The notes: generated from the letters alone by a model not told the origin. Shown: positions 22,947 through 64,000, counted from the first letter of the stretch. The stretch: 64,000 nucleotides of DNA from Elusimicrobiota bacterium (GCA_044221725.1 JBGAON010000004.1:275557-339556), one strand, 5' to 3'. Numbers and translations are program-made.

Positions 22947-23683
22947 AGTCGGCAACGCTCATAATCACGGGCGTTTTTCTGCTCGCGCCATGGGTGGCCC
23001 TTCCCGCCCCGCGCGTAGCGCGAAAAGTGCCGATTGAAGTTCAGGTTGAGGTGAACGAAGTGGACAACGAACGCGCTGCCAGTTTGGGGATTGATTGGCT
23101 GGACAGTGCCACGCTTCAAGAAAAATCACCGGCCGGTATTCTTGCGATTGGGAAAGTGGAACGCGTCACTGCGCTGCGGGCGGATCTGCACTTTCTTGAA
23201 GAGGAAGGCGCAGCGGAGTTGTTGGCGAACCCGAACCTCGTTACCGATTCCGGCACCGGGGCCGCGTTCCATGCGGGCGGAGAAATTCCGTACATCACGA
23301 GTTCCTCGCTCGGCACGACAAACGTGCAGTTCAAGTCTTACGGAGTGTTGCTCGACGTGCACCCCACCTTGTTGGCCGACGGCCGAATTCAAATGGGCGT
23401 GCGCGCCGGCGTGAGCGCGCCCGACACGTCGGCCGGCACCATGGTCTCGGGGAATGCGGTGCCCGCGCTGCTCACGCGCGACGTCACATCGAACGTAACA
23501 ATGGAACCGGGGCTAACGATGACGCTTGCGGGTCTCGTCCAAACCCAAAAAACCGAAACCGAAAAAGGCGTTCCGCTGTTGCGCCGTATTCCATTTCTCG
23601 GACGGCTGTTTCGGTGGCGCAGGACAAATTTCCGCCGAACGACTATAATCATGTTCATTACACCTCGAGTAGCAACCCGATAA
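22943..23683 (+). CDS. Short secretin (RcpA/CpaC or T2SS-D-like), secretin domain only
   Basis: LGIDW, LANPNLVT.SG..A.F.AGGEIP, YGV.L.V.P, GVPLL.RIPFLGRLF and FITP. Confidence 0.88.
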   Translation: MKSATLIITGVFLLAPWVALPAPRVARKVPIEVQVEVNEVDNERAASLGIDWLDSATLQEKSPAGILAIGKVERVTALRADLHFLEEEGAAELLANPNLVTDSGTGAAFHAGGEIPYITSSSLGTTNVQFKSYGVLLDVHPTLLADGRIQMGVRAGVSAPDTSAGTMVSGNAVPALLTRDVTSNVTMEPGLTMTLAGLVQTQKTETEKGVPLLRRIPFLGRLFRWRRTNFRRTTIIMFITPRVATR

Positions 23684-47780: not shown

Positions 47781-49028
47781 TTAGAGCGTGTCGGTTTTTG
47801 ATTGGCGCAGGCGGGAAATTGGGATTCGGATCAAGAGCGCGGGATTTTCGGTCACAACCAGAATCTTTCCTGATTCAAATGCAAACCCGGTGGGTGTTGC
47901 TCCTTTCACGAACGGGTCCAAATCAAACATCCCAAGTTGTAGCAGCGGTTTCTGTAAGCGGTAGGCGCCGATGAGGCGCGATTTTCCGTCCAAAATCCAA
48001 AGCCTGCTTTTGTAGAACGTAAACGCGGTCATGCCCATTTCGGGCAGCGGAAACGTATCGCGAATGTCTTCGAGCTCGGTGCCGCGATGTCGGTACAGTG
48101 CGCGCTCACTAGCATCGGCCGACCACAAATCCAATCCATCCCAATAAAGCCCGACGGGCTTTGAGCCCGGCGTCGGAATTCCGGCTGTGATCTGGTGATC
48201 GACGGTCAGTGTGTGCGTGAGAATCTTTCGGTCCAGCGCATCGATGGTCCACAACGCTTTCTCCGACATCGCGATACCGGTTGCCATGTTGTTAATCACG
48301 GATTCAACGGATTTGATCGTGAGATTGGAGGAGTTCTCGTGCAGATAAATGGAGCGGCGGAACCAGTCCAGAATAAAAAGTCCCTTCTTATTAACAATGG
48401 GTCCCAATGTATGCGCGTACGGAATCGGTGTGACTTGGACGCGCTGCGACAAAGCATAGAACGCACCGGCCGAGACGAGGACGATCCCAGCGAGAGCGGC
48501 AAGAATTGTATTTTTTGAAAATCGTGTGGTCGGCTTTGACCATCCAAGCTGCAGCGGCTCCGGTGAGGAAGCGGAAAGCGATGGTCGAGAATGTGACGAA
48601 TGGGAGAAAAATGGCACGTGTCGGGCGGGACGTTCAACGCGGTGGAGTTCTTTTTGAAGCTGATCCATGAGGATTTTTAAACGCTCTTGTTCGGATCCGG
48701 ATTTTTTGCGCGGTTGTTCCGGAATCGGGCCTTCGAAGGCGGGCTCAACGCGGGACTTTTTGGGCGGTTCTTTTTCTTCCTCTTTGGGCGATGCAGGCGG
48801 CACGTTCGCATTTGCCACCACGAACTCTTCCATAATCCTGTTTATCTTTTGTTCGTAAGACGACTTTGCGGTTTCCCATTCTTTTTCCATTCGCCGTTGG
48901 TAACTGTCGATGTCACCAACAAGTTCGGCGGCGGCCGGTGGCAAATCATCGGGCAAAATGGCGTCGAGTTTGGGTTCTTCTTTCGGCAAATCGTCGCTGT
49001 CTTCCGGGCGTTTTTCGGGTTCTCCCAT
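47781..49028 (-). CDS. Single-pass membrane protein: charged N-terminus, TM, beta-propeller-like domain
   Basis: TM ILAALAGIVLVSAGAFYAL; repeated blades GIAM...LWTID, GLYWDG.DLWSAD and LWILD. Confidence 0.7.
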   Translation of the reverse strand: MGEPEKRPEDSDDLPKEEPKLDAILPDDLPPAAAELVGDIDSYQRRMEKEWETAKSSYEQKINRIMEEFVVANANVPPASPKEEEKEPPKKSRVEPAFEGPIPEQPRKKSGSEQERLKILMDQLQKELHRVERPARHVPFFSHSSHSRPSLSASSPEPLQLGWSKPTTRFSKNTILAALAGIVLVSAGAFYALSQRVQVTPIPYAHTLGPIVNKKGLFILDWFRRSIYLHENSSNLTIKSVESVINNMATGIAMSEKALWTIDALDRKILTHTLTVDHQITAGIPTPGSKPVGLYWDGLDLWSADASERALYRHRGTELEDIRDTFPLPEMGMTAFTFYKSRLWILDGKSRLIGAYRLQKPLLQLGMFDLDPFVKGATPTGFAFESGKILVVTENPALLIRIPISRLRQSKTDTL

Positions 49029-49097: not shown

Positions 49098-51323
49098 CTA
49101 CTCGACCCGGCGACGGATGCGTTCGAGTTCTTTGTTGATACGGCCGGCGCCCTGTTCTCCGAATCGGCGCAGCATGTCTTGCAAGAGTTCGATCTTCTCG
49201 TAGTCGGTGATGTCGCGTTCCGACACCGTACGGTAGTATTCCCAGGCGCGATCCAGATCCGCGTCCGCGGGAATCTTGAATCCGGACAAGTTCGTGGGCA
49301 CCGGCGTAACCTTCTTCGGTTTTGCCGTTGGTTTTGCGACCGGTTTTTCAGCCGGTTTCTTTGTGGCGGATGCCTTGGCCGGTTTGGCCGCGGGTTTCGT
49401 GATGGCCGGCACTGGTGTTGGTGCGATCGTCGGTGCAGCAACCGCGGGCGTTACGCCGTTCGCGTTCAGTTCGGCGAGTTCGCGATCGATCATTGACAGG
49501 TCGAAGTTTTGATCGCCGTACACAACTTTCATTTGATTGAGCAAGCCAACAAGTTCGTCGTGCGGCGCGTTCTGCGCTTTGCGAACCATGTAATAACCGA
49601 GCGCGGTTCCAAACGCGCGCAACAACGCATCGCGATCCGACATTTGCATCTGCGCCGGCGTCGCTGATTTCTCTTCGTGCGTTGACGGAGCCACCAGCGA
49701 CTGCGGCGCTTCGGGCAACGGTGCGGGTGCGGGCGCCGCCTCGTTCGCGTTAAATTTATCGGTAATCTTCGCGCGGCGCGCCAGAAGTTCGCGGTACGCA
49801 CGTAACACCACTTCATCCGACGGCAATATTTCCACCATGCGGCGCACGTATCCAATGCAGCCATCAAGATCCTGGCGTCGGTACGTCTGTGCCGCCAGTT
49901 CGGAAAGCGCCATCAGTGACAGAGAAGCGAGGCGATCGCTGCGCTGCGTGTTCGCCGGCATGACCGCCAGCCGCATAAGCGTCGACTTCGGATCGTTCTT
50001 CACAAGCGATTCGAGCGCGTCCATCGACATCGATTTTTCATCTTCGGGCACGCCTTTTAGCAACGCAAATTTCAGATGCGCCCAATCCATAGTGTTGTTC
50101 GCGTATTTGCGCAAAAGATCTTTCAAATCACCACTTACGTTTTTGAGGCCCGGATCATCCAGCGGATATTTGCGCATCAGCAAGAACATCAATTGGTCTT
50201 TGTATTCCGGCGTGAGTCCGCGCGCGAGACTGATGCGCGTTAAGAGAATGTGCGTCGTTAAACTATCCCACGCGAACGCGGAGATAAGATCGGTGTTCGA
50301 ATAGTCTCTCGCAAATTGCGTGGAGCTGGATCCGAGTTTGAACGCAAATCCAACGCGGTGCGTGCCGCTTGTGTCGGCCAAGTTGCTCACCGGGAAGCTG
50401 AACGAGTAATCCAAACGGAATCGAGAATACATATACGAAAGTCCCGTGGTGAGTGCGCGGTAGCCGCGCGAGCCCGTTGCGTATCCGCCGCGTAGCACCA
50501 GCGCACCGAGCGACGCAAACGGGAAGTTCCGTTCCGCGCCGAGCGCGACGTCGCTGTCGGTCTGGCCAACCAAGCGTTTCACGCGTCGATTTTCAATGGA
50601 GAGCGTGCCCCAACGCGGACGGTACGCAGCTCCCATCTTCACTCCGAGCGGCGCCTTGTCGCCGTCGCCGGCGATCGACACATCGGGTTGGTTGGCGTTG
50701 ATCAACGCAACGCCCGCCGTGTATTCGTACTTCGGACCAAATTGAGCGAGCGCGCCCAAGTCGAATGCGTACGTGTCTTTCGAATTTCCAGCGGTGAACA
50801 ATTGATCGTGTTGATTGGATGCCACGCCCGCATCGTTCAAGGCATTTTCGGTAAATCGGTCCGGTTCGTACTGACGGTGCAATTGTTTCACGTTACCGCC
50901 GAAGGAATAGATGCCGCGGTAGCCAAGCGAGTCGAGATCAATCCGCTGACTGTAACTCAAGATCAACGTGCGTTCGGAGAACAAGTTGTCGCCCTTGAAG
51001 TTGTTGTACGCAAACCCGATGGCACGATATCCTTTCACAAGAGGGTACGCGTAGCCCAAATACGTGGTGCCGAGAGTCGAACCATCACCGAGGCCTTTAA
51101 CCAGCTGGCCGTATTGTGTGCTGATCTGACCTTCTTGCATTTGCACGAGACCCGCCGGGTTGTAACCGATCGCATCCGCATCATCGGCGACAGCCGTAAA
51201 CGAATCCGCCATACCCGGAGCGCGCGCACCGCCACCCTGATCGTCGAAAGACGCGAGCGCGACCGGAGCCGGCAACTGCACCAAGAAAATCAGACTCAGG
51301 AGAAGAGCGAGTAGTTTCTTCAT
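49098..51323 (-). CDS. PorV/PorP(SprF)-like outer-membrane beta-barrel with long helical C-terminal extension
   Basis: Signal peptide, GARAPGMADSFTAVADDADAIGYNPAGL, amphipathic strands ending RLDYSF...GTHRVGFAFK, then ~400 aa helical and Pro/Ala/Lys-rich. Confidence 0.8.
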   Translation of the reverse strand: MKKLLALLLSLIFLVQLPAPVALASFDDQGGGARAPGMADSFTAVADDADAIGYNPAGLVQMQEGQISTQYGQLVKGLGDGSTLGTTYLGYAYPLVKGYRAIGFAYNNFKGDNLFSERTLILSYSQRIDLDSLGYRGIYSFGGNVKQLHRQYEPDRFTENALNDAGVASNQHDQLFTAGNSKDTYAFDLGALAQFGPKYEYTAGVALINANQPDVSIAGDGDKAPLGVKMGAAYRPRWGTLSIENRRVKRLVGQTDSDVALGAERNFPFASLGALVLRGGYATGSRGYRALTTGLSYMYSRFRLDYSFSFPVSNLADTSGTHRVGFAFKLGSSSTQFARDYSNTDLISAFAWDSLTTHILLTRISLARGLTPEYKDQLMFLLMRKYPLDDPGLKNVSGDLKDLLRKYANNTMDWAHLKFALLKGVPEDEKSMSMDALESLVKNDPKSTLMRLAVMPANTQRSDRLASLSLMALSELAAQTYRRQDLDGCIGYVRRMVEILPSDEVVLRAYRELLARRAKITDKFNANEAAPAPAPLPEAPQSLVAPSTHEEKSATPAQMQMSDRDALLRAFGTALGYYMVRKAQNAPHDELVGLLNQMKVVYGDQNFDLSMIDRELAELNANGVTPAVAAPTIAPTPVPAITKPAAKPAKASATKKPAEKPVAKPTAKPKKVTPVPTNLSGFKIPADADLDRAWEYYRTVSERDITDYEKIELLQDMLRRFGEQGAGRINKELERIRRRVE

Positions 51324-53470
51324 CTCGCCACCCCCACGGTTCCCGTGAAGGACTTCCCTTCGCCCGAAATGCGGTAAATGTAAGCGCCGCCGGGCACCAC
51401 ATTTCCGCGATCGTCTTTACCATCCCATATAAGCGTTGTGCCGATGCCGCTGTGCGAATCGGCCGGCGGGAGTGTGCGCACATGGCGTCCGTCTTTGTCA
51501 AAGATTTCGCCGGACACCGGCACGTTGTTCGGGTTCTCAAGAATAAAGTACACACGGTCGTTGAGTCCGTCGCCGTTCGGTGTAAACAACCGTGGATAGA
51601 CGTTGCCTTGGCTCAAGCTCAGCGTCGACGGATTGGCCGACACGCGCAATTGATAATTTCCGAGGAAAGATGACCGCGTCTTCACCGCTTGCGCAGGAAT
51701 ATCCACGGTGCCACCGATACGAACCCACGTCACACCGTTGAACCAATACATCGACAATTGATCGGGCGTGATTGCGCTCGCGCGCACATTTCCGCCGCGC
51801 GATCCAATCCCCGGTGCTCCGCCGATCACTTGTCCATTCTGTTGGTTGTATCCAACCGCGACGGTGGCTTGCGGTTGCGAAAACGCGAGATCATTGAGAA
51901 CCTCGCGCGTGTCGGTTCGGATCAGTTTCAGCCGGACGTTGCGAACAATAAGCCCATCCGCTGACAGCGGTTCGTCGGAAAGTTCGATCGTGAGCGGCAC
52001 GCCGTACTTGTTGTATGCAGACCGCAACAAGTCGTTCACGGTTTCGGGCATCATCACGTGCGACACGCCGTCCGTGCTGAGATAAATGATGTTCGCTTCG
52101 GGGCTCGAATCCGCGATCAGCGAATCGGGTGATTCGTTTCCAGCCAAGTCGACCGCACGAATCGTGTAGTAATTGACTTGGTTATTAACTTGGTCCGCAA
52201 ACGCAGCGACCGCGAGCGGTGCTGGTGTGAGTCGGATGCCGGGACCTGTCAACGAGTCACGACGATAAATGTAATAACCGGCGATGTCCGTCGCTGGTGA
52301 GCCATCGACGTTGTAGCGAACCGGTTCCCATGTGAGCGCGAACGCTCGACCGGTTGGATCCAAAAATCCTTTGAGTCCCGCGGGCGCAGACGGTGCGACC
52401 AGGTCGCCGCTTTGTGCCGTGAACACCGTAACAACCGAGCTCGGGTTCGATAAGAGACCATCTTCATTGATCGCGCGGACGCGGTAATAATAGGTCGTAA
52501 GTTGGGCGAGGCCCGTGTCTAGATACGTGACGACGTTAATCGTCGCGATCGGCGTGTAAGCAACGTTGTTGTTCGATCGCTCGAGGCGATAACGTGTTCC
52601 ACCCGGATTGTTGTTCGACGTCCACGTGAGTGAGACTTGAGATATTGTGATGCCGCTCGCCGCAAGATTCGCGGGAACGTTGGCCAACGTGTAAACCGTA
52701 ACCGGTGATGTGGGCAACGACACACCGGAGGCATTTCCTGATCGCAATATTCGTGTGATCGCTTCGTTCGGGGTGAATCCGAATTCATCAAACGAGAAGC
52801 CATTGGAATCGGTGACCGTAAGATCGCCCGGATACGTCGACAGTCGATAATACGTGGCACCAAGCGTGACGCCCCAACTCCATTGAATTGCGTGTGTTGA
52901 AATCGCCATGCCGGCGAAATTCGTCGGAGGCGAATTGAGTGTCGAAGAAACAAACGCGCGCGCTTGTTGCCCGATCGTTGAGGAATGCGTGTCAATCGGT
53001 GAAAGCAAGTTTGCGTCGTCGATGCTCTTGATAGCGAAGTAATACGTGACGCCGCCCGGCAATCCATTCAGCAACATGAATTCGGTGACGCCAGGATTTG
53101 ACGGCGGAGGTTCGCCCGTGACGTCTTGGGCGGTGTTCCACCACGTTGTGGTACTTCCAATGCTATCGGCGGAGAACGTGGCGATGCGAACCACGTATGA
53201 GGCCACCGGGTTTCTATCGCTGAACTGGTTGTTATTTTCGTCCGGCGATGACCATTGCAGGATCACTTGGCCCGCAGCTCCAGGAGCCGCGTTCAAATTG
53301 GTGATCGCTGCTGGCGGTGTCGTGTCGAGAGGACGGAACGTAACGGTGAGTGAGTCGGACGTCGCGGCAAAAGCCGGCCGCGCGAGGACAAAGAAGCCCC
53401 CGGCAATGGCCAACGTGGCCAACGCCCAATCACGAACGCGTTTAAAAATGTTCGTGCCCACGTGTTTCAT
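51320..53470 (-). CDS. Secreted Fn3-repeat protein with gliding-motility/T9SS type B-like (FlgD-Ig) C-terminal domain; putative fibre anchor
   Basis: Signal ending AFA, mature start ATSDSLTVTFRP, four Fn3-like repeats, C-terminal VYPRLFTPNGDGLND...WDGKD..G..VP.G.YIY. Start is 53470 or 53491. Confidence 0.8.
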   Translation of the reverse strand: MKHVGTNIFKRVRDWALATLAIAGGFFVLARPAFAATSDSLTVTFRPLDTTPPAAITNLNAAPGAAGQVILQWSSPDENNNQFSDRNPVASYVVRIATFSADSIGSTTTWWNTAQDVTGEPPPSNPGVTEFMLLNGLPGGVTYYFAIKSIDDANLLSPIDTHSSTIGQQARAFVSSTLNSPPTNFAGMAISTHAIQWSWGVTLGATYYRLSTYPGDLTVTDSNGFSFDEFGFTPNEAITRILRSGNASGVSLPTSPVTVYTLANVPANLAASGITISQVSLTWTSNNNPGGTRYRLERSNNNVAYTPIATINVVTYLDTGLAQLTTYYYRVRAINEDGLLSNPSSVVTVFTAQSGDLVAPSAPAGLKGFLDPTGRAFALTWEPVRYNVDGSPATDIAGYYIYRRDSLTGPGIRLTPAPLAVAAFADQVNNQVNYYTIRAVDLAGNESPDSLIADSSPEANIIYLSTDGVSHVMMPETVNDLLRSAYNKYGVPLTIELSDEPLSADGLIVRNVRLKLIRTDTREVLNDLAFSQPQATVAVGYNQQNGQVIGGAPGIGSRGGNVRASAITPDQLSMYWFNGVTWVRIGGTVDIPAQAVKTRSSFLGNYQLRVSANPSTLSLSQGNVYPRLFTPNGDGLNDRVYFILENPNNVPVSGEIFDKDGRHVRTLPPADSHSGIGTTLIWDGKDDRGNVVPGGAYIYRISGEGKSFTGTVGVAR

Positions 53471-53710
53471 CACGTGTCGATGCACTCCCATCGTTCTGAC
53501 ATTTGTCTCCTATGACGTCCGACGATCATCAGCCGCACTTGAGACGCAATGCGCCGTGCGGATGGACTTCGTCCGTGGACGTGCTTCGCCTGTTGTGTCG
53601 CTGGCGAAATCGCCCGACGTCGTGTTTGACCTATGCGTGCTGCCTGTTAGGCCGAGGTCATATGTCCTCCCAATTCGTCACATGTTTCTCTCGTGTTTCC
53701 TCCTTTGCGA

Positions 53711-54355
53711 TTAGCTCTGTGGCGCTGCGGCTCCGATCGTGATGCTGATGTTCTGGGCGTTGGAGCTCGTCGTCGTTGCTGGCAGACGGAAGAACAACCA
53801 CAGATGCGACTGGCTGCTCGCTGCTGGGAACGGATTCATGTCGTCCATGTCTTTGTTGTCGGGTCCGGAGCTGTTCTCGAACAGGTTGTTCACACCGTTT
53901 GCTGTTCCCACGAACTCCGCATTCGCGCTCACAACGTCGCTGTTGTTTTGGGCCGGTTGCGTGCCGCTGAAGTAATCACCGGTCTGCGCGGGTGCCGATG
54001 AACGCTGAACGGACGTGAACGTGGCCCACGTGGCGACTTTGTCGGCTTCGCTCGATGTGGTGACGTCATCAAACGACCATGGATCGCTTGCCGCGGTGAT
54101 TGCTCCTTGCAACTTCAGGTCCGTCGTGAGGTAGGTGCTGAGCACGGTAACGGTCGCTGGTTGCACGGTCTGCGTGGAAGCCCCGAGCGCGACGGTACCG
54201 AGGTTGAGCGAGACGTTCGCGGTGTCGATGTCGACCGAATAGAACGCATTCGGTGTGATCGTGACCGTCAACGTATCCGACGATGCGGCGTGTGACACGG
54301 CTGAGAGCCCGAGCCCGAAGGCCAAGGCCAGTGCGACTTTACTTGCACGTTTCAT
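53711..54355 (-). CDS. Secreted pilin-like subunit, copy 1 (214 aa, full length)
   Basis: SD AGGAG, Sec signal SHA|A, mature ASSDTLTVTITPN...HLWLFFRLP...ISITIGAAAPQS. Confidence 0.8.
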   Translation of the reverse strand: MKRASKVALALAFGLGLSAVSHAASSDTLTVTITPNAFYSVDIDTANVSLNLGTVALGASTQTVQPATVTVLSTYLTTDLKLQGAITAASDPWSFDDVTTSSEADKVATWATFTSVQRSSAPAQTGDYFSGTQPAQNNSDVVSANAEFVGTANGVNNLFENSSGPDNKDMDDMNPFPAASSQSHLWLFFRLPATTTSSNAQNISITIGAAAPQS

Positions 54356-54600
54356 TTTGTTTCTCCTTTTGTTTTTTGTTTTGAACTGCAAATCTGTTTG
54401 CTCGTACGTGGACGTCCGCGAACGAGCGTCATTCACGCGCGCACATGCACGGGTGAAATGCCACAAATCCTGCCGGTGACACGGCTTCCAACGCCTGCCA
54501 CAAGCGGATTTCTCGCGATTTGTGTTCGCTATGTTCTTCGCTAACTCAGCTCATATGAGCTCCATTTGCGTTCACATATTTCTCTCGTTCTCCTTTGCGC

Positions 54601-55143
54601 TCAGCTCTGTGGCGCTGTCGCTCCGATGGTGATGCTGATGTTTTGGGCGCTCGTTCCGGTCGTTGTTGCGGGCAGACGGAAGTACAGCCACAAGTGCGAT
54701 TGCGACGCTGCGCTGACGACATCGCTGCTGTTTTGGCCGGGCTGCGTTCCGCTGAAGTAATCGCTGGTCTGTGTTGGTGCCGACGAACGCGCGACGGATG
54801 TGAACGTGGCCCATGTAGCGATCTTGTCGGCTTCGCTCGAGCTTGTAACGTCGTCGAACGACCATGCGTTTGCCGCTGCCGTAATGACGCCTTGGAGTTT
54901 TAGGTCCGTCGTTGCGTAGCTCGACAGCACGGTGACAGTCGCGGGTTGCACGGTCTGCGTGGAAGCCCCGAGCGCGACCGTACCGAGGTCGAGCGAGACG
55001 TTGCCGGTATCAATGTCCACCGAATAAAACGCGTTCGGTGTGATCGTAACCGTCAGCGTGTCCGACGATGCGGCGTGTGACGCGGCTGTGAGCCCGAGCC
55101 CGAAGGCCAAGGCCAGTGCGACTTTTTTTATGGCGCGTTTCAT
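54601..55143 (-). CDS. Secreted pilin-like subunit, copy 2 (180 aa, 35-aa internal deletion)
   Basis: Close paralog of copy 1; SD AAGGAG. Confidence 0.8.
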   Translation of the reverse strand: MKRAIKKVALALAFGLGLTAASHAASSDTLTVTITPNAFYSVDIDTGNVSLDLGTVALGASTQTVQPATVTVLSSYATTDLKLQGVITAAANAWSFDDVTSSSEADKIATWATFTSVARSSAPTQTSDYFSGTQPGQNSSDVVSAASQSHLWLYFRLPATTTGTSAQNISITIGATAPQS

Positions 55144-55212
55144 GTGTGTCTCCTTTTTTTCGTTATGTGTTTCTCAGCTCATGCCTGTTTTTCCCTGATG
55201 CTTTTTTCATCG

Positions 55213-55731
55213 TTAGCTCTGTGGCGCTGTCGCTCCGATCGTGATGCTGATGTTTTGGGCGTTCGTGCCGGTCGTTGTTGCGGGCAGACGGAGCGACGCT
55301 GCGCTGACGACATCGCTGCTGTTTTGGCCGGGCTGCGTTCCGCTGAAGTAATCGCTGGTCTGTGTTGGTGCCGACGAACGCGCGACGGATGTGAACGTGG
55401 CCCATGTAGCGATCTTGTCGGCTTCGCTCGAGGTTGTAACGTCGTCGAACGACCATGCGTTTGCGGAGGCCGTGATGACGCCTTGCAGTTTCAGGTCGGT
55501 TAGCGCGAACGTCGAGAGCACGGTGACGGTCGCTGGCTGCACGGTTTGTGTGGACGCGCCGAGCGCCACGGTACCGAGGCTCAGCGAGACGTTTCCCGTG
55601 TCAATGTCGACCGAATAGAACGCATTCGGTGTGATGGTGACGGTCAGTGTGTCAGACGATGCCGCGTGTGCGGCGCCGCTCAGTCCCAGTCCGAAGACGA
55701 GGCCGAGCAGGACTTTCAGTGTGCGCTTCAT
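55213..55731 (-). CDS. Secreted pilin-like subunit, copy 3 (172 aa, further 7-aa deletion)
   Basis: Close paralog; SD AAGGAG before ATG 55731; lacks the QSHLWLYF segment. Confidence 0.75.
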   Translation of the reverse strand: MKRTLKVLLGLVFGLGLSGAAHAASSDTLTVTITPNAFYSVDIDTGNVSLSLGTVALGASTQTVQPATVTVLSTFALTDLKLQGVITASANAWSFDDVTTSSEADKIATWATFTSVARSSAPTQTSDYFSGTQPGQNSSDVVSAASLRLPATTTGTNAQNISITIGATAPQS

Positions 55732-55819
55732 GTTGTCGCTCCTTTTTTGTTGTGTAGTTTTTGTGAATCGATTCAACCGGTTGAATAATCTCTGCATGTG
55801 CGAATGAATTTTCATGACG

Positions 55820-56719
55820 TCACTCCTTCACGCTGATGTACACACGCACAGGCGCGTCGAGCCAAAACCCGGTCGTTAGCGATGTGCGTATGAGTGCCGC
55901 GTATTTTTTGCCTTTGTATTTCGGATCGTTGGGAATTGTGATGATCGGCTGGAACGAGGCAATCTGTTCGCCGGCAATCGCTTCCTGATCCTTTTTGAAA
56001 CTGACCCAATTCGAATCGGGGATGGGTTCGTATCCGGGCGGTAACGTGAGTTCTTGTTTCCACGCGTCGGTGCTGAGCTTGATGGACAGCGCGTCCGCCG
56101 AATAGTTCACGACGCGAATCGATTTGTTCTGTTCTTTCTTCGCGTCGAACTTGGTTCCGATCGGAACATCGGTGATGTAAAGCGCTTGCGGCGATACATC
56201 GAAGTCGAGTTTCGCCATCGCTTTCTGACGTTTCTCTTCTTGCAGCGTTTCGGGACCAGGCCCGATCGAGAAACGCAATTTGTTTTCGACCGCGACACCG
56301 ATGAGACCGGTGCCATCCGTGCGCGCTTTGATGATCGCGACGAAGTGCCGCCCGTTCAGCGATTTGTCGTCCGGAATCGACAGCAGGAGATCGAAGAATC
56401 CCTGCGCGTGCGCACCAATCCGCATTTTTCCAGGGATGGCTTTGACCCAGCTCGGATCCGGAATTGGCTCGTACGGCGCTTTCACGTACCGTGGATCGGT
56501 CGGCTCAATTTCGACGACCACATCCACATCGGCATTGCTGCGATTCTCGATACCAAACGGAATCTTCAGCACCTCGCGCAGGTTGTAGGTTTTTCCTATT
56601 TCGGCATTTTCAACGATGACATCGCCGAACCGAGCGGCGAGTCCCATGCTCCACGCGGGCATGCGCAGCATGATGCCGAGCAATCCCATGAGGATCGTTA
56701 TGCGGTACACGTGTTTCAT
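55820..56719 (-). CDS. Secreted protein with two Ig-like internal repeats, putative subunit chaperone
   Basis: Signal peptide; repeats PYEPIPDPSWV...LLSIPDDK.L.GR.F.A.I and GYEPIPDSNWV...IITIPNDP.Y.GK.Y.A.I; SD AAAGGAG. Confidence 0.7.
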   Translation of the reverse strand: MKHVYRITILMGLLGIMLRMPAWSMGLAARFGDVIVENAEIGKTYNLREVLKIPFGIENRSNADVDVVVEIEPTDPRYVKAPYEPIPDPSWVKAIPGKMRIGAHAQGFFDLLLSIPDDKSLNGRHFVAIIKARTDGTGLIGVAVENKLRFSIGPGPETLQEEKRQKAMAKLDFDVSPQALYITDVPIGTKFDAKKEQNKSIRVVNYSADALSIKLSTDAWKQELTLPPGYEPIPDSNWVSFKKDQEAIAGEQIASFQPIITIPNDPKYKGKKYAALIRTSLTTGFWLDAPVRVYISVKE

Positions 56720-56750
56720 TGTCTTGTCTCCTTTCTGTTTGGCCATGGCG

Positions 56751-57413
56751 TTAATCGGGCGCCACCGCCGTAATCGTCACTGAAATGTTTTGAGGCGTTG
56801 CCGATGTTGTTGCGCTCGGCAATCGGAAATAGAGCCACAGGTGCGACTTCGCGTTTGGATCGGGTTCGGGCGCGAGAGAATCCATGTTCTTTGCGTCGAA
56901 CCCGCTGTTGTTTTCAAAGAGATTGAAGGTGCCTTGGGTCGCGGAATCGCCCACGTAGCGCGATTGATTGTCGATCACGTCGCTGCCATTCGCGCCGGGT
57001 ACCGTGCCACTGAAATAATCCGCGGTTTGTGTGGGAACGCTGGAGCGCGCAACGGACGTGAAGGTGGCCCACGCGGATAACTTGTCGGTGTCGCTCGATA
57101 CGGTGTTGTTATCGAATGTCCACGGTGTGCCGGAGGAAGAAATCGAACCTTGAATCTTCAGATCGGTGAACGCGAATGTGCTTTGCACGGAAACCGTCGA
57201 TGGCTGCACCGTCTGCGTGCTCGCTCCCAAATTAACGGCGCCGAGATTGAGCGACACGTTTGCGGTGTCGATATCCACCGCGTAATAGGCGTTCGGCACA
57301 AACGATACGGTCAACGTGTCCGTGCTGCCGGCGCGCGCGACGTTGGCTGAGAACAAAAGCACCGCCATCGCCGGCACGGCCAATTTCAAAATCGATCGCA
57401 AGAGCGCGCGCAT
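56751..57413 (-). CDS. Secreted pilin-like subunit, divergent copy 4 (220 aa), putative adaptor
   Basis: ARA|GSTDTLTVSFVPN, aligns with copies 1-3 throughout; TGATG-coupled to the giant gene. Confidence 0.8.
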   Translation of the reverse strand: MRALLRSILKLAVPAMAVLLFSANVARAGSTDTLTVSFVPNAYYAVDIDTANVSLNLGAVNLGASTQTVQPSTVSVQSTFAFTDLKIQGSISSSGTPWTFDNNTVSSDTDKLSAWATFTSVARSSVPTQTADYFSGTVPGANGSDVIDNQSRYVGDSATQGTFNLFENNSGFDAKNMDSLAPEPDPNAKSHLWLYFRLPSATTSATPQNISVTITAVAPD

Positions 57414-60400
57414 CAGTCGGGCACCGTCGCTTTTCCTGTGATTCGGATTTGTTGCGCGTTACCGGTCGTCGTCAAATTCGGCATCGCCAACTTGAACCAA
57501 ATGGTGCGCGTTCCGCCGGGGGGAACGTCAACGCACGTGGTTGCCGCGTTGGTGATTTGAGACGAGGTGCAGCGCGTGTAACTTGCGGAATTTAGTTTGT
57601 CGTCAACAGCGAAATCGGTGGAAATCGGTTCGGTATCGTTAACAATGGCCCACAAAACAAAGTGATCGGTCGATGTGCTCGCGGCCATTTGCCACGGTGT
57701 GCCGGCGGTAGCGGTCGTTGCGTGGAATTCGAATGTTTCGTTGACGTTGCCATTGTTCGTAACAACGATGCCCGTTGAAATAACGAGCGTTGTGTTGAGA
57801 TTGATGGTGCCGGTGAGCGCGAGCGTGTCGGTCGAAAGTTGAATGCTGAGATTCAGGCTTTGAGCGTAGGTCGTTGCTCCATTCGAAATCGCGGACGTGT
57901 TCCCGTGGATGTCCTTCGTCCAGGCTCGGAAGTAATACGTCCCGCCGCTGATAAGCCCCGTAATTGTTCTGTGTTGCACCGATGATGCGGCGACGTTTGT
58001 TGTAGCGATGATGGTGCGATAAACGTAAGGGAACGGATCCGATGTTGGTGACCACGAACCGCCATTGGCGAACGAACTGTCTGTCGAATATTGGATTGTG
58101 AACGTGGAGTTGATGAGCGTGCCGAGCGACCCATCTTCTCCGGGCGCGGTCCACGTTAAATCGATTGAACTTCCCGTTCCGCTGGGGACCGCGGTCAAGT
58201 CGGAAATTGCCGTCGGCGCTCCGAAATCCCAATTTCTATTGTTGCCACCATCAACGCTCGGATAAAACGTTTGCATGACCGCGCCGGACGACGCGTTTGA
58301 GTCTTGCGCGGTCACATTCAAAATTGTCTGGCTGGAACCAGCGTACCGGAAGTACCATGTCGCGTTATTGGATGTTGAGCGCAGTGAAATATTTTCGAAG
58401 TCGAGAAGGCTGGTGACGTATTGCGTCGTTCCCGCCGTGAAGTACAGCGTGGTGTTCGGCGTTGTTGCGCGCAGCGCATAGAACGTTGTTGAGCCGGAAA
58501 GTGTGCTTTGTGTTGGTGCGTTAAATGTGACGGTCGACCCTGTTCCCGTAAATGAGCCGGAGGGGAATCGCCAATCGCCGCCCACCGAAATTGCTTTTGC
58601 ATTCGTGGTGATCGTGCTGCCCGCGAGATTGAAAGTTCCGTCAACCGTCAGCGCGTCTTGAAGCGTGAGAGTTCCGCCGGTTTTGCTGATCGTGAGATTG
58701 AAGAAGTTATCGGCGTTCGACGTGATGTTCTGATTGTTTCCGTTCGTGAACGTGACCGTCGAGCCGCCAGGCACCACGTTTGCACTCCCGGACTCAATCC
58801 AATCGCGCGCGACGCTCATCGTCGAATTGTTGAGATTGAATGTGCCGCCCGTAAGAATGACGTGGCTTGTTACCGTGACGGACCAATTGTTGCCCGTGTC
58901 AAACGTCCCACCGTTGAGCGTGAAGTTTCCGGTGGAATTGAGCATGGAAGCGAGCGTGGCGGTTCCACCGGTTTTGTTCACAAATACGTTCGCGACAATG
59001 GCGCCGCCTGTATGGATTGATTGGTTCTGTGACCCCGTGAACGCAACGGTGGACGCGGCCGCGTTAAACGTTCCGCCAGTGCGAATGAAATCGCCGCCAA
59101 TCGAAAACGTGTTCGTTGTGAGCGTGATCGTGCCGCTCACTTGCGTCACGTTGCTCGCGACGGTGATGGCGTAACCCTGTGTGTTGATGAGGCCGGAATA
59201 TCCCGAGACCGTGAAAGAAGCGATGTTGATATTCGTTGTGATGTTCGCTTGGCCGTTAAATCCACCGCCGCCATCGAACACGACGGTATCGGTCGATGTT
59301 GGAACCGGAGCTCCGCCCAGACTGCCACTCGCGTACGACCAGTTCGCTGCCGATGTCCACAGCCCGCCGCCCGAATTAACCCAGTAACGAACATTCGAAC
59401 CAGCGAACGCCCAATTTCTGTTGTTGCCGGCGTCTCGACTTTGGCTATCGGGGAAAAGCGCGGAACCGAAATTCGCATTGGAGTCTTGAACGGTGACATC
59501 GACAATGGTTTGGCTGGAACCGGTGTATTTGAAATACCAAGTCGCGTTGTTCGTGGTGGAACGTAGATACACGTCGCGGAATTCGACGATGCCGGTGACA
59601 TGGTTTGTTGAACCCGCCGTGAAATAGAGCGTGCTGCCATTCGTGATGGCCCGCAGCGAATAGAACGTGGTCTGACCAAGAAGTGTCTGTGACGTCGCGC
59701 TATTAAATGTGACTGTTGAATTTGTGCCGGTGTATGTCGCGCCCAGCGAATTGGTCCAGTTGCCGCCAATCGTGAGGGCTTTGCCGTTGGTGTTTATCGT
59801 TCCGCCGGCGATCGTGAAAATACCGTCGGCGTCAAAAGCGTCTTGCAGTGTCGCTACGGTGTTCGCGTTCTTGTTAATCTGAAGGTTGAAGAAATTATCG
59901 CCGCTCGAAGTAATGTTCTGCGCGAATCCGCCAATGAACGTAACTGTGGAGAATCCGGGATTCACGACTGCCGAGGTGTTCGTCCAATCGCGTTGCAGTG
60001 ACATCGTCGAATTATTGAGATTGAACGCGCCGGTGTTGGAAATGGAAACATGGCTCGCCACGGTGACGGACCAATTGCTGCCGGTGTCCAACGTTCCCGC
60101 GGAAATTGTTAAGTCGCCGTTCGTTGTTAACGGGGAGGCAAGAGTCGCTGCCGTGCCGCCGGATTTGTTGACGTTGACGGTATAAAAGGCAATCCCGTTT
60201 GGATTGATCGATTGAGCGACGGATCCATTGAATGAAACGGTGGATTGAATCGAATTAAATGTCGCTGCCGTGCGTGTGAAGTTGCCACCGACAAACATTG
60301 TGTTGGTGGTCATGTTGATGGTGCCGTTTGTGAGGAAGACATTGCTTGCGACGGTGATGGTGAACCCTTGTGTGTTCATGGTTCCGTTCAGGAAAGTGAG

Positions 60401-63400
60401 ATCACCATCAACACCGAGGTTGCCGTTGACGGCAAGAGTAGTGCCCGCGGTCTTGCTCGATACCAAGTGATAGAAGTCGGTGCCGCCGGAGGTGAGAATC
60501 TGAGCGTTGCCGCCGATGAAGGACACCGTGGAAGTTCCGGCGCTGAATGTTCCGCCGGTGTTCGTCCAGTTTCGTTGCACGGACATTGTTGAGCCATTCA
60601 ATTGCAAGACGCCGCCCGTGAGGGTCACGTGGCTTGTGACATTAACGGCCCAGTTGCTTGAGGTGGTATCGAGTGTCCCGTTGTTCACTGTCAAGTTTCC
60701 GTTTAAGTTGAGCGTTTGCACGAGAGAGGCGACGGTTCCATTTGCCTTGTTCACGTTTAATGTGAACAGCGCCGCGTTGCCGACGTTGATGGATTGATTC
60801 AGCGTGCCGTTGAGCGCTACCGTTGATGCGGCCGCATTGAATGTTCCGCCCGATCGGATTAAGTCACCGCCGAGAGTGAGAGTGTTGGTGGTGAGAGTAA
60901 TTATTCCACTGACTTGCGTCACATTGCTCGTGACGGTGATGTTGTAACCCTGTGTGTTGATTGTGCCGGTGTAGCCGGCGACCGTCATTGAAGCCACGCT
61001 GATAGTTGTTGTGATATTCGCTTGTCCGTTGAGCGTGTTGGTCGGGCCACCGTCAAAGACGACGGTGTCGGTCGATACTGGTATTGGCGCGCCACCGGTG
61101 CCGCCGCTCACGTACGACCAGGGGGCTGTCGTGTTCCAATTTGCGGCGCCCGCACTGATCCAGTAACGCGCACTCCGTCCACCAAATGCCCAGTTTCGGT
61201 TGTTCCCGAGATCGGTGCTCGTAATATCCGGGAGCAGTGTCGTCCCAAAGAGCGCATTTGAATCTTGCACGGCGACATCCGCAATCGTTTGGCTTGAGCC
61301 GGTGAATTTGAAATACCAAGTGGCGTTGTTGAGTGTTGACTGGAGCCCTATGTCCCTTAACTCAAGAATGCCGGTGACGTGATTGGTGGATCCTGCCGTG
61401 AAATAGATAGTGCTGCCGGGATTAATGGCCCGCAGAGAATAGAAAGTTGTCTGACCGAGAATTGTTTGAGTGGTCGCACCATTGAAGGTAACGGTAGAGT
61501 TTGCGGCGGTGAAAATTCCGGCCGCGCTGTTATCCCAGTTGCCAACAACGGTGAGAAGTTTTCCGTTGGCGTTGATGGTTCCGGCAGTGAGAGTAAAGGC
61601 GCCGTCGACATCGAGTGTGTCTTGCAATGTCGCCACGGTGTTCGCCGTTTTGTTGATTTGAAAGTTAAAGAAGTTATCGCCGTTGGACGTAATGCTCTGC
61701 GCAAACCCGCCAATGAACGTGACAGTAGAAAGTCCGGGGTTCACAAGTGCCGACGTATTTGTCCAGTCACGCTGCAATGACATTGTCGAGTTGTTTAAGT
61801 TGAACGCACCGGTGTTCGTGATTGCGACAAAACTCGCAACGGTCACGGACCAATTGCTGCCGGTGTCCAACGTTCCGGCCGAAATTGCTAAGTCGCCGTT
61901 CGTTGTTAACGGAGATACAAGGGTTGCGGTGGTGCCACCGCTCTTATTGAGGTTGACGGTGTAGAAGGTCAGGCCGTTGGGATTAATGGACTGATCAACG
62001 AAGCCATTGAACGCTACAGTGGAGCGGTTGGCGTTAAAGGTGGTGGCGGCGCGTGAGAAGTTTCCGCCAACGAAGAACGTGTTGGTGGTCATGTTGATGA
62101 TGCCGTTTGTGAGGAAGACGTTGCTCGCGACGGTGATGGAGAATCCTTGTGTGTTCATGGTTCCGTTCAGGAAATTGAGATCGCCATCAACCCCGAGATT
62201 TCCATTCACGGCGAGTGTAGTGCCCGCGGTCTTGCTGGAGACCAAGTGATAGAAGTCGGTGCCGCCGGAGGTGAGAATCTGAGCGTTGCCGCCGATGAAG
62301 GACACCGTGGAAGTTCCGGCGCTGAATGTTCCGCCGGTGTTCGTCCAGTCGCGTTGCACGGACATTGTTGAGCCATTCAATTGCAGAACGCCGCCCGTGA
62401 GGGTCACGTGACTTGTAACGTTAACGGCCCAGTTGCTGAGGCTTGTGTCTAACGTTCCGCCACTCACGCGTAAGCTTCCATTTAAGTTGAGTGTTTGCGT
62501 GAGTGTGGTGATGCCCGAATTCTTGGTGACGTGGAAATTGAAAAGCGTCGCGTTTCCGAGCGTTACGGTCTGATCGATACTTCCGATGACCGCGAGGGTG
62601 GATGCCGCTGTGTTAAACGTGCCACCGCTCCGCAGCAAATCGCCACCGAGGGAGAATGTGTTGGTTGTGAGGGTAAGCGTTCCGCTCGTCTGGGTGACGT
62701 TGCTTGTTACGGTGATGTTATAGCCCTGAGAATTGATCAATCCCGCATAACCGGAAACAGTCAGCGAAGCGATGTTGACAGTTGTTGTGATGTTCGCTTG
62801 TCCGTTAAGCGTGTTGGTCGGGCCACCGTCAAAGACGACGGTGTCCGTCGATGCTGGGATTGGCGCGCCACCGGTGCCGCCGCTCACGTACGACCACGGT
62901 GCTGTCGTGTTCCAATTTGCGGCGCCCGCGCTGATCCAGTAACGCGCACTCCGTCCACCAAATGCCCAGTTTCGGTTGTTCCCGAGATCGGTGCTCGTAA
63001 TATCCGGGAGTAGTGTCGTCCCAAAGAGCGCGTTTGAATCTTGCACGGCGACATCAGCAATCGTTTGGCTTGAGCCGGTGAATTTGAAATACCACGTCGC
63101 ATTGTCTGTGGTGGAGCGTAGAGATACGTCGCGGAATTCGACGATGCCGGTAACGTGGTTGGTTGACCCTGCCGTGAAATAAAGCGTGCTGCCATTTGTA
63201 ATCGCCCGCAGGGAGTAGAACGTGGTTTGCCCGAGGATTGTCTGAGTGGTGTTGCCATTGAAGGAAACGGTAGAGTTTGCGGCGGTGAAAATTCCGGCCG
63301 CGCTGTTATCCCAGTTGCCAACAACGGTGAGAAGTTTTCCGTTTGCGTTGATGGTTCCGGCAGTAAGAGTAAAGGCGCCGTCGACATCGAGTGTGTCTTG

Positions 63401-64000
63401 CAATGTCGCCACGGTGTTCGCCGTTTTGTTGATTTGAAGATTGAAGAAGTTGTCACCAGAGGATGTGACATTCTGCGCGAAGCCACCAAGCAATGTGACT
63501 GTGGAGAAACCTGGGTTCACAAGCGCCGAGGTGTTCGTCCAATTGCGTTGGAGCGACATCGTCGAGTTATTGAGATTGAACGCACCGGTGTTCGTGATTG
63601 CGACAAAACTCGCCACGGTCACGGACCAATTGCTGCCGGTGTCCAACGTTCCGGCCGAAATTGCTAAGTCGCCGTTCGTGGTTAACGGAGATACAAGGGT
63701 CGCTGTGGTTCCACCGCTCTTATTGAGGTTGACGGTGTAAAAAGTCAGACCGTTGGGATTAATGGACTGATCAACGAAGCCATTGAACGCTACAGTGGAG
63801 CGGTTGGCGTTGAAGGTGGTGGCGGTGCGCGAGAAGTTTCCGCCAACGAAGAACGTGTTGGTGGTCATGTTGATGATGCCGTTTGTGAGGAAGACGTTGC
63901 TCGCGACGGTGATGGTGAACCCTTGTGTGTTCATGGTCCCGTTCAGGAAATTGAGATCGCCATCAACCCCGAGATTTCCATTCACGGCGAGTGTAGTGCC
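57413..64000 (-). CDS. Giant Thr/Asn/Gly-rich repeat adhesin-like protein with Fn3 and C-terminal pilin-like domain; 5' end outside the window
   Basis: Over 2190 aa open to the window edge; beta-helix-like repeats, a Fn3 (PTAISDL...TWTAPG...TYYF) and a terminal domain ending TIWFKL.MP..TT...Q.I.IT...VPD. Confidence 0.88.
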   Translation of the reverse strand, partial: GTTLAVNGNLGVDGDLNFLNGTMNTQGFTITVASNVFLTNGIINMTTNTFFVGGNFSRTATTFNANRSTVAFNGFVDQSINPNGLTFYTVNLNKSGGTTATLVSPLTTNGDLAISAGTLDTGSNWSVTVASFVAITNTGAFNLNNSTMSLQRNWTNTSALVNPGFSTVTLLGGFAQNVTSSGDNFFNLQINKTANTVATLQDTLDVDGAFTLTAGTINANGKLLTVVGNWDNSAAGIFTAANSTVSFNGNTTQTILGQTTFYSLRAITNGSTLYFTAGSTNHVTGIVEFRDVSLRSTTDNATWYFKFTGSSQTIADVAVQDSNALFGTTLLPDITSTDLGNNRNWAFGGRSARYWISAGAANWNTTAPWSYVSGGTGGAPIPASTDTVVFDGGPTNTLNGQANITTTVNIASLTVSGYAGLINSQGYNITVTSNVTQTSGTLTLTTNTFSLGGDLLRSGGTFNTAASTLAVIGSIDQTVTLGNATLFNFHVTKNSGITTLTQTLNLNGSLRVSGGTLDTSLSNWAVNVTSHVTLTGGVLQLNGSTMSVQRDWTNTGGTFSAGTSTVSFIGGNAQILTSGGTDFYHLVSSKTAGTTLAVNGNLGVDGDLNFLNGTMNTQGFSITVASNVFLTNGIINMTTNTFFVGGNFSRAATTFNANRSTVAFNGFVDQSINPNGLTFYTVNLNKSGGTTATLVSPLTTNGDLAISAGTLDTGSNWSVTVASFVAITNTGAFNLNNSTMSLQRDWTNTSALVNPGLSTVTFIGGFAQSITSNGDNFFNFQINKTANTVATLQDTLDVDGAFTLTAGTINANGKLLTVVGNWDNSAAGIFTAANSTVTFNGATTQTILGQTTFYSLRAINPGSTIYFTAGSTNHVTGILELRDIGLQSTLNNATWYFKFTGSSQTIADVAVQDSNALFGTTLLPDITSTDLGNNRNWAFGGRSARYWISAGAANWNTTAPWSYVSGGTGGAPIPVSTDTVVFDGGPTNTLNGQANITTTISVASMTVAGYTGTINTQGYNITVTSNVTQVSGIITLTTNTLTLGGDLIRSGGTFNAAASTVALNGTLNQSINVGNAALFTLNVNKANGTVASLVQTLNLNGNLTVNNGTLDTTSSNWAVNVTSHVTLTGGVLQLNGSTMSVQRNWTNTGGTFSAGTSTVSFIGGNAQILTSGGTDFYHLVSSKTAGTTLAVNGNLGVDGDLTFLNGTMNTQGFTITVASNVFLTNGTINMTTNTMFVGGNFTRTAATFNSIQSTVSFNGSVAQSINPNGIAFYTVNVNKSGGTAATLASPLTTNGDLTISAGTLDTGSNWSVTVASHVSISNTGAFNLNNSTMSLQRDWTNTSAVVNPGFSTVTFIGGFAQNITSSGDNFFNLQINKNANTVATLQDAFDADGIFTIAGGTINTNGKALTIGGNWTNSLGATYTGTNSTVTFNSATSQTLLGQTTFYSLRAITNGSTLYFTAGSTNHVTGIVEFRDVYLRSTTNNATWYFKYTGSSQTIVDVTVQDSNANFGSALFPDSQSRDAGNNRNWAFAGSNVRYWVNSGGGLWTSAANWSYASGSLGGAPVPTSTDTVVFDGGGGFNGQANITTNINIASFTVSGYSGLINTQGYAITVASNVTQVSGTITLTTNTFSIGGDFIRTGGTFNAAASTVAFTGSQNQSIHTGGAIVANVFVNKTGGTATLASMLNSTGNFTLNGGTFDTGNNWSVTVTSHVILTGGTFNLNNSTMSVARDWIESGSANVVPGGSTVTFTNGNNQNITSNADNFFNLTISKTGGTLTLQDALTVDGTFNLAGSTITTNAKAISVGGDWRFPSGSFTGTGSTVTFNAPTQSTLSGSTTFYALRATTPNTTLYFTAGTTQYVTSLLDFENISLRSTSNNATWYFRYAGSSQTILNVTAQDSNASSGAVMQTFYPSVDGGNNRNWDFGAPTAISDLTAVPSGTGSSIDLTWTAPGEDGSLGTLINSTFTIQYSTDSSFANGGSWSPTSDPFPYVYRTIIATTNVAASSVQHRTITGLISGGTYYFRAWTKDIHGNTSAISNGATTYAQSLNLSIQLSTDTLALTGTINLNTTLVISTGIVVTNNGNVNETFEFHATTATAGTPWQMAASTSTDHFVLWAIVNDTEPISTDFAVDDKLNSASYTRCTSSQITNAATTCVDVPPGGTRTIWFKLAMPNLTTTGNAQQIRITGKATVPD
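58220..64000 (-). repeat. Intragenic tandem repeats of about 1.78 kb (592-593 aa)
   Basis: The RYW codon block CCAGTAACG occurs at 62936, 61160 and 59381 (spacings 1776 and 1779 bp), with long near-identical DNA tracts between units. Confidence 0.92.

Follow-up and report, generated by a model that had tools for sequence, protein, structure and literature searches.

In this study, we analysed a 64,000-nucleotide stretch from the genome of an uncultured Elusimicrobiota bacterium (GCA_044221725.1, JBGAON010000004.1:275557-339556; hereafter the window), which forms the end of contig C1 in a 2.8-Mb, 94% complete assembly, and in particular the run of eight minus-strand genes between positions 49098 and 64000. 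Our findings support a model where these genes encode a donor-strand pilus, with a giant tip protein that only accepts a strand, shaft pilins that both accept and donate, and a base protein that only donates; that such a fibre exists we regard as very likely. With less assurance, we lean towards a chaperone-assisted donor-strand pilus that uses the phylum's type IX secretion system (T9SS)-like pathway in place of an usher. Donor-strand pili in outer-membrane bacteria are thought to need an usher, or the lipoprotein route of type V pili; here a putative chaperone, pilins, tip and base occur without an usher, and the base is paired with T9SS-type parts. The result is a widespread, apparently undescribed candidate pilus cassette. 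Apparently new, among the emerging usher-less, chaperone-guided donor-strand pili, are its pilin family and its T9SS-type base in a diderm.

A preliminary description of this DNA had listed, in one run, a giant adhesin, subunit 4, a two-Ig protein, subunits 3, 2 and 1, a protein with Fn3 domains and a T9SS-type C-terminal domain (CTD), and a PorV/PorP-like barrel, and the open reading frame (ORF) map bears out this order (table 1). All four subunits begin with a Sec-type signal-like segment ending in AxA, as assigned by eye, the −1 Ala being nearly invariant in 89 homologues; the strand said to follow is SDTLTVTITP in subunits 1–3 and TDTLTVSFVP in subunit 4, and the bodies end in ..LP..T....QNIS(I/V)TI, as claimed. 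With zero Cys, none of the four has a lipobox. The Cys-free body holds for these subunits but not for the family, in which 35 of 170 members carry a Cys beyond residue 30, nor for the adhesin's own pilin domain, which contains two. Subunits 2 and 3 are shorter than subunit 1 by 35 and 42 codons, respectively; because public contigs carry in-frame sequence at both junctions, their loose ends reading into a conserved motif, SHLWL (at 54702 in run X4 and at 55292 in run X9), we take the deletions to be probably collapsed repeats of the assembly. A 323-base contig of the closest run, X1, aligns by its first 175 bases only and ends at 54699, and one relative has three full-length, near-identical pilin copies. 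Searches with the pilin found 95 homologues in one database and, in a second, 118 cluster representatives; the source names listed are all Elusimicrobia, the top Atlas clusters are Elusimicrobiota, and a pattern scan of the assembled genome contigs found one locus only. No Pfam family matched the four subunits at a meaningful score, the pilin had no NCBIfam match, and neither the pilin nor the chaperone profile matched a PDB sequence. The WxL domain PF13731 had no match in the genome at E ≤ 10, its control matching, and is absent among 25 of the 27 families listed for 150 pilin members; a pilin match of 0.83 to an Atlas cluster with 22% WxL is a lead only.

Structural models place the donor strand outside its own domain. 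The mature pilin, a single domain of 191 residues, is modelled with a pLDDT (predicted local distance difference test) of 94.8 as a β-sandwich in which residues 1–17 are left unpaired, so that the strand is not self-inserted in the modelled monomer. The Foldseek comparison proposed in the preliminary description gave three matches at E ≤ 0.001, all donor-strand fibres: TasA (8AUR; the best, E 1.7e-4, TM score 0.40), TLP-1b and TLP-1a. Lower rows include CfaB, an archaeal thread, FimG, cannulae and bundling pili. An independent aligner, VIA, likewise ranked TLP-1b (Z 7.3, root mean square deviation [rmsd] 4.6, 145 aligned) and TasA (Z 6.5, rmsd 3.9, 148 aligned) at the top. In a complex model of the pilin with residues 1–145 of the base protein, base residues 1–14 lie antiparallel on pilin strand 177–186, the pilin's last strand, and also touch strand 15–20; the score is 0.63, against 0.34 for the best of three controls, a mark reached by 116 of 157 solved pairs and by 2 of 215 mismatched ones; at least 88% of the contacts recur between runs, with a partner pLDDT of at least 82. 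Thus modelled, the base strand is supported as a ligand of the pilin groove, and the pilin is predicted to be an incomplete β-sandwich completed by the N-terminal strand of its neighbour.

The two ends of the fibre are marked by what they lack. As had been noticed, the base protein starts with the strand (SDSLTVTFRP) and has no pilin body; its Pfam matches are fn3, FlgD_ig and CHU_C (27.2 bits, cut-off 27), TIGR04131 falling below cut-off. A short alternating strand lies between signal and first domain in 46 of 47 aligned bases, the 47th being mis-started, and scores above 7.5 bits in 36 of the 47. Among the 22 CTD proteins of more than 300 amino acids in the genome, only the base scores for the strand (19.9 bits, with a matrix that included the window's own pilins; next 7.5). 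Across loci, the base strand resembles the strand of its own locus's pilin (19.8 versus 10.6 ± 0.9 when shuffled, reached in 0 of 20,000 shuffles); this comparison used 40 loci out of 48 rows, the dropped ones having no full-length pilin in the fetched stretch or a gapped strand. When each chaperone cluster contributes a single locus (15 or 19 clusters), the covariation persists at p ≤ 0.002, kinship being reduced though not removed. The adhesin mirrors the base: it ends in the subunit body without the strand, its last 145 residues matching the pilin profile over mature residues 16–189. Tips printed from other loci also have, by eye, the pilin body without the strand. The tip gene runs off the contig, and an open ORF of 5173 amino acids at the start of contig C2 (G000:C2:2-15520) has a signal-like N-terminus and tip-type repeats up to 78% identical, for which reason it is probably the N-terminal part of a tip of at least 7,368 amino acids in total, by a contig join that we infer without a found overlap. 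Upstream of this presumed tip start on C2 no usher-sized gene was seen by eye. Tip sizes range across loci from about 340 to several thousand residues, and the payloads of 27 scanned tips comprise β-helix, FG-GAP, propeller, laminin G, lamin-tail or metallo-lactamase-fold domains. Two FG-GAP tip genes (L045:1245-8210, L047:12513-19454) stand apart from the pilins on the opposite strand, which would allow more than one tip per shaft.

The two-Ig protein is modelled (pLDDT 91.7) as two PapD/MSP-like domains joined by a helix, and is an internal duplication (E 4e-9). Its top VIA row is WxLIP of Enterococcus faecium (9I1Y, Z 12.0, rmsd 14.4, 205 aligned), tied with ciliary ASH domains, and it is followed by pilus chaperones: YadV (Z 10.8), CsuC (10.3), FimC (10.1), and FaeE, CupB2 and SafB (Z about 10). 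Atlas leads below 0.9 point to WxLIP and PapD_N clusters; PF00345 is absent among the 23 families matched by 111 members of the two-Ig family, of which two match PF06030 (best E 0.027). By fold and position we call it a putative pilus chaperone. A hydrophobic 19-mer occurs in the last 80 residues of only 3 of 63 such chaperones, and a chaperone without a membrane anchor fits a periplasmic role. A single-domain chaperone gene often comes after the tip gene (L050:6916-7389, L069, L072, L073, L076, L081, L084); some loci have two full chaperones or fusions of 770–840 amino acids, and the single-domain ones are possibly tip-specific.

The cassette recurs throughout much of the phylum. Among 401 sampled Elusimicrobiota genomes, the pilin profile, which also matches tips, finds 94 and the chaperone profile 105, while two large families with small genomes are nearly without the cassette (0 of 118; 0–1 of 89); matches in about a quarter of the sampled genomes give a poorly known phylum a concrete surface structure. 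The synteny survey covered 60 loci from 57 genomes (20 around pilin and 40 around chaperone matches, favouring matches away from contig edges). A base lies downstream in 47 of the 60, followed by a barrel in 45 of these; pilin, chaperone, base and barrel occur together in 39, and the tip comes first in 30. Of the 13 loci without a base, nine reach a contig end and four are lone chaperone genes. Pilin copies number one to seven per locus. No usher, sortase or pilus ATPase is encoded among the 38 window ORFs scanned, as had been claimed. In the whole genome, usher PF00577 has no match (its control matched in E. coli) and sortase PF04203 none (its control matched in 3); over the 401 genomes, PF00577 appears weakly in two at E ≤ 0.001 and above cut-off in one, a genome without a chaperone match. 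In none of the 60 loci does an usher or other pore gene stand between the labelled ones; the large unlabelled ORFs that some loci contain were considered as possible ushers and rejected, 13 of the 16 of at least 300 amino acids having been scanned and found to be membrane/TPR, O-antigen-ligase-like, AAA or unassigned proteins. Within one family's cassettes there are membrane proteins with C-terminal TPR arrays and one O-antigen-ligase-like protein (L069:5069-9773, L072:2876-6969, L073:13188-17584, L074:9545-11356, L076-L078); the former presumably resemble TMTC-type glycosyltransferases (no family match), hinting at glycosylated pilins.

Two parallels in the same genome repeat the design. A second cassette of the same layout (G000:C3:384661-392621; L097:6661-14621) comprises a barrel, a pilin-like protein of 284 amino acids, a chaperone-like protein of 271 amino acids that matches PF06030 (E 2e-4), a CTD protein that starts with its pilin's strand, and a 1325-amino-acid protein that ends in its pilin's body (33% identity, E 5e-22). 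Its pilin has no profile match to the main pilin family (probability 0.2%), and is matched in 38 of 371 genomes, including 14 of 89 in the family without the first type; by eye, a strand common to pilin and CTD-type neighbour recurs in several loci of this second type. Second-type tips in several loci have carbohydrate-binding-like domains and glycan-processing-like neighbours. The other parallel is a single chain of 13,689 amino acids (G000:C3:407319-448388), whose N-terminal repeats are about 40% identical to the tip's and which continues in a long Fn3 stalk and closes with the Fn3/CTD module also found in the base (E 4e-69); judged from its sequence, it is a covalent version of the same object. 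Other CTD giants in the genome measure 8,766, 7,987 and 3,457 amino acids.

How, then, might the fibre reach and hold the surface? The cassette barrel matches PorV_fam at 50 bits against a cut-off of 90; the family scores of cassette barrels are mostly below cut-off, with PorP_SprF over it in L080. A long tail is usual (46 of 52 barrels reach at least 476 amino acids) and in relatives carries OmpA, LysM or TPR domains (L079:7042-8973, L081:7634-9814, L034:5471-7624); a 57-residue helical-type repeat occurs in 26 of 53 cassette barrels versus 1 of 26 other barrels of this genome. Such tails fit a periplasmic tether to the wall. The genome encodes 24 CTD proteins and 27 PorV-like barrels, and for 20 of the 24 CTD genes a barrel gene is found no more than 1.5 kb away, a layout also reported for type B cargo and shuttles (PMC12618676, PMC9143113). 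A SprA/Sov-like protein of 1799 amino acids (G000:C4:344418-349817; L055:8419-13818) has three partial matches to TIGR04189, none reaching the cut-off, and its homologues occur in 356 of the 401 Elusimicrobiota genomes; PF14349 (SprA_N) had no match, but its control was silent too. An open-literature search found no report of a T9SS in Elusimicrobiota. CTD-only small secreted proteins (113–196 amino acids; 25 listed) often stand between base and barrel, possibly as placeholders or carriers (e.g. L035:13496-13837, L045:15928-16347, G000:C5:149475-149852); one in this genome adjoins the closest paralogue of the barrel.

We propose the following route. All parts would cross the inner membrane by Sec, loss of the signal peptide freeing the N-terminal strand. 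In the periplasm the soluble two-domain chaperone, by analogy of fold, would cap the pilin groove that the model leaves open beside the last strand, and the pilins would chain head to tail by donor-strand exchange. Since the tip only accepts a strand and the Fn3/CTD protein only donates one, these two would fix the ends of the fibre, as model and covariation suggest. The SprA-like translocon would then take the CTD of the base and pass it to the neighbouring barrel, which would anchor the fibre at the cell surface, the role that PorP/SprF barrels play for type B cargo, while its periplasmic tail may tie it to the wall. A large, variable adhesin could so be displayed far from the cell. Provided that the fibre exists, its pilins probably pass through the SprA-like pore. 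The earlier proposal of a strand-donated fibre tethered via T9SS-type parts is in this way supported by the models, the synteny, the missing usher and the pairing of CTD and barrel. Its order of tip, shaft and terminator is upheld for the ends and the shaft, but the strand-only protein may be an initiator rather than a terminator. T9SS substrates are described as leaving CTD-first with a carrier barrel (PMC10994853), and TapA as giving the first strand to the TasA fibre (PMC11821415). The base being the one part with a CTD, export of the chain behind it is the simplest model with a single route, and CTD-first export suggests that the base may be the initiator, like TapA for TasA, with the strand-less tip added last. 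Thus, we tentatively suggest, as a possibility rather than an expectation, that the whole fibre is T9SS-type cargo grown base-first, opposite to the order of chaperone-usher assembly: as initiator, the strand-only CTD protein would leave CTD-first through the SprA-like translocon and dock on the barrel, pilins would join its free donor strand on the periplasmic side during threading, and the tip would come last and end growth. If this were so, the cassette would amount to the single-chain giant surface proteins of the phylum in split, length-tunable form, one design filled with at least two unrelated pilin families; it would also offer a further way for a pilus across the outer membrane and extend T9SS-like secretion to Elusimicrobiota.

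Several points weigh against a T9SS-like donor-strand pilus. In fold comparisons the pilin reaches intermediate scores (Z under 8), though donor-strand fibres dominate the match list, and the pass of the complex model may partly reflect likeness to solved fibres of that kind. Because the WxLIP match is tied with ciliary ASH/PapD-like domains, the fold of the two-Ig protein does not prove chaperone function. The SprA assignment reaches at best E 3e-16 and 58 bits against a cut-off of 200, the 1799-amino-acid protein having no Pfam or PDB sequence match; as it is found in most of the phylum, its co-occurrence with the cassette says little. Of the motor parts, the search covered GldM, which had no match in the genome, its control being silent as well, and GldK, which gave a match below cut-off. 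We know of no T9SS that passes a non-covalent polymer. Pilins, tip and chaperone have no CTD, and the genome contains secretin (3) and CsgG-family (7) matches. These last two points also favour the foremost alternative, that the fibre and anchor are the same but the pilins and tip leave through a secretin-based type II or CsgG-like pore and polymerise outside, the T9SS-like route exporting the base only; the monoderm counterparts are described as polymerising at the cell surface. Against it, none of the 60 loci has such a pore gene between its labelled genes, a tip of more than 7,000 residues needs a large pore, and the anchorless chaperone fits a periplasmic role, so that we consider this route unlikely, if well worth keeping in view. 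Another reading is a short modular stalk, in which a swappable tip is linked to the CTD protein through one or a few pilin-like adaptors and piggybacks out on it. In its favour, most loci have base and pilins within one run, and several loci have a single pilin gene; with CTD-first export after assembly, the periplasmic space would limit length; and contigs of RNA runs, which cover pieces of base, pilins, chaperone and tip, do not show transcription and cannot be used to rank expression. Yet a high dosage is suggested by tandem arrays of as many as seven near-identical pilin genes (L038, L048); with every pilin a donor as well as an acceptor, nothing would stop a homopolymer from growing; and the nearest solved folds are all filaments, which together make the stalk improbable. 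Far less probable still is a divergent chaperone-usher system, with an unrecognised usher or with the PorV-like barrel and its periplasmic tail as assembly pore: the chaperone does have a PapD-like fold and the long tails could dock chaperone–pilin complexes, but PF00577 is missing as described above, the tails are variable (TPR, LysM, OmpA), and PorV-type barrels, which are 14-stranded and plugged, would be too narrow for a folded 20-kDa domain. That each subunit is complete by itself, a monomeric surface protein whose strand serves as a processing or sorting motif, is scarcely credible, for although a conserved mature N-terminus can reflect signal-peptidase preference, the strand is unpaired in the monomer model, docks in trans, is absent from tips and from the 21 other CTD proteins, is present in bases and covaries by locus.

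For the T9SS-like donor-strand pilus favoured here, known systems supply most of the parts. The Elr/WxL pilus of Enterococcus faecalis, described as confined to Bacillota (bioRxiv 10.64898/2026.10.17.759780), shares the usher-less, chaperone-guided donor-strand exchange predicted here, a two-domain chaperone (putative in the present cassette), variable tip payloads, a large tip with a C-terminal pilin domain, small shaft pilins with an N-terminal strand, and a strand-only base subunit without a pilin domain. It is, however, a monoderm system with a membrane-anchored chaperone (96.7%) and a base fixed by LPxTG and sortase, whereas here there is no WxL match, the putative chaperone is soluble and duplicated, no sortase is found, a CTD base lies beside a PorV-like barrel, and an outer membrane has to be crossed. 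Elusimicrobia are not mentioned in the main text of that preprint, its genome survey tables being outside that search. The Pam pili of the Candidate Phyla Radiation (PMC13278184) are likewise described as usher-less donor-strand fibres with PapD-like chaperones and a proposed base, PamR, made of an N-terminal strand and Fn3; they have two-domain pilins donating an internal linker, chaperones and base with C-terminal membrane helices, and no outer membrane, in contrast to the single-domain pilin with N-terminal strand, soluble chaperone and CTD base seen here. Membership in Elr/WxL or Pam is therefore rejected, there being no WxL, sortase or membrane-anchored chaperone and the pilins being single-domain. 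The claim that no described system has this combination stands for the cassette as a whole, an open-literature search (subscription journals and bioRxiv supplements outside its scope) having found no description of it, but fails for the parts logic without an usher, which Elr/WxL and Pam already display; the novelty thus lies in the pilin family and the outer-membrane solution. Three usher-less systems are in this way linked, differing only in how the strand-only base is fastened: by LPxTG (Elr), a membrane helix (Pam), or CTD and barrel (here).

Among other relatives, TasA/TapA of Bacillus subtilis and TLP-1a/b (8AUR, 9IKJ, 9IKK; PMC11494351) are the solved folds closest to the pilin, an N-terminal strand completing the neighbour's sandwich. 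They differ in sequence (7–13% identity), and the literature consulted attributes to them neither a tip adhesin nor a PapD-like chaperone nor a CTD/barrel anchor; TLP-1 forms a wide n+4 helix whose producer is not known. No ORF for a SipW signal peptidase lies between the cassette genes in the ORF list, in which no family search for it was made. Chaperone-usher pili (type 1, P, CFA/I, Csu) have the incomplete sandwich, N-terminal extension, acceptor-only tip and a periplasmic PapD-fold chaperone, of which the two-Ig protein is a putative counterpart, but here there is no usher and no pilin disulphide, the base is a separate CTD protein, and the direction of growth may be reversed; without an usher, assignment to this class is rejected. 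The type V pili of Porphyromonas (PMC7835359) offer an usher-less strand-exchange pilus in a diderm, with a tip protein, Mfa5, that bears a T9SS CTD; their lipoprotein precursors, protease-triggered exchange, CTD on the tip rather than the base and lack of a chaperone set them apart, and with no lipobox here this class is rejected too. In type B T9SS cargo (PMC9143113, PMC12618676, PMC10994853) the gene of the CHU_C-type CTD protein adjoins that of its own barrel, with CTD-first export through SprA and surface anchoring on the barrel described; the cargo described there consists of single chains in Bacteroidota, whereas here the CTD protein would form the base of a polymer that is not covalently joined, and the search for GldK and GldM gave no clear sign of a Gld/PorKLMN motor. 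The small soluble pilin and chaperone make the proposal testable in E. coli without culturing the organism.

Table 1. Coordinates of the candidate pilus cassette, counted from the first nucleotide of the window
Feature	Position	Strand	Remarks
Giant tip protein, C-terminal 2195 residues	57413..64000	−	Open, runs off contig end; β-rich repeats, one Fn3-like domain, pilin body
Tip pilin body, acceptor only, without donor strand	57416..57850	−	hhalign probability 96.6%, E 5.7e-10
Subunit 4, minor or adaptor pilin	56751..57413	−	57% identical to subunit 1; start overlaps tip stop codon
Two-domain PapD/WxLIP-fold putative chaperone (two-Ig protein)	55820..56719	−	Internally duplicated; no C-terminal membrane helix
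Subunit 3, shaft pilin	55213..55731	−	42 codons missing at 55292, probably assembly collapse
Subunit 2, shaft pilin	54601..55143	−	35 codons missing at 54702, probably assembly collapse
Subunit 1, full-length shaft pilin, 214 amino acids	53711..54355	−	
Donor strand of subunit 1	54245..54283	−	
Base (Fn3/CTD) protein	51320..53491 (probable start 53470)	−	Donor strand, Fn3 domains, type-B-like CTD; no pilin body
Donor strand of base protein, mature residues 1–14	53324..53365	−	
T9SS-like CTD of base protein (CHU_C / FlgD_ig)	51323..51604	−	
Barrel gene, whole	49098..51323	−	
PorV/PorP-like outer-membrane barrel domain	50328..51251	−	PorV_fam E 3e-13, below cut-off
C-terminal tail of barrel, presumably periplasmic	49098..50327	−	Short helical-type repeat common to 26 of 53 cassette barrels

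The public runs in which at least half of the stretch's words occur are bioreactor, wastewater or unlabelled metagenomes. After the barrel, both here and in close relatives, comes a protein of 415 amino acids (window 47781-49028, minus strand) that is hydrophobic in a central stretch and propeller-like in its C-terminal half; in more distant loci this place is often taken by a sensor-kinase-like gene. A lone 246-residue secretin domain (PF00263; window 22943-23683, plus strand) lies 25 kb from the cassette, with a methyltransferase and a triosephosphate isomerase as neighbours and no pilus genes beside it. Further along the plus strand, window 24611-28781 encodes a DnaA-domain protein with a long Pro-rich linker and a C-terminal domain of no known family; its neighbours are a histidine kinase and a Pro-rich protein whose C-terminus is similar. 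Finally, a protein of 3049 amino acids (window 8667-17816, minus strand), without a Pfam or NCBIfam match, is one of many giants in the genome that have a common N-terminal motif and often a short ..AA/GA/SA tail.

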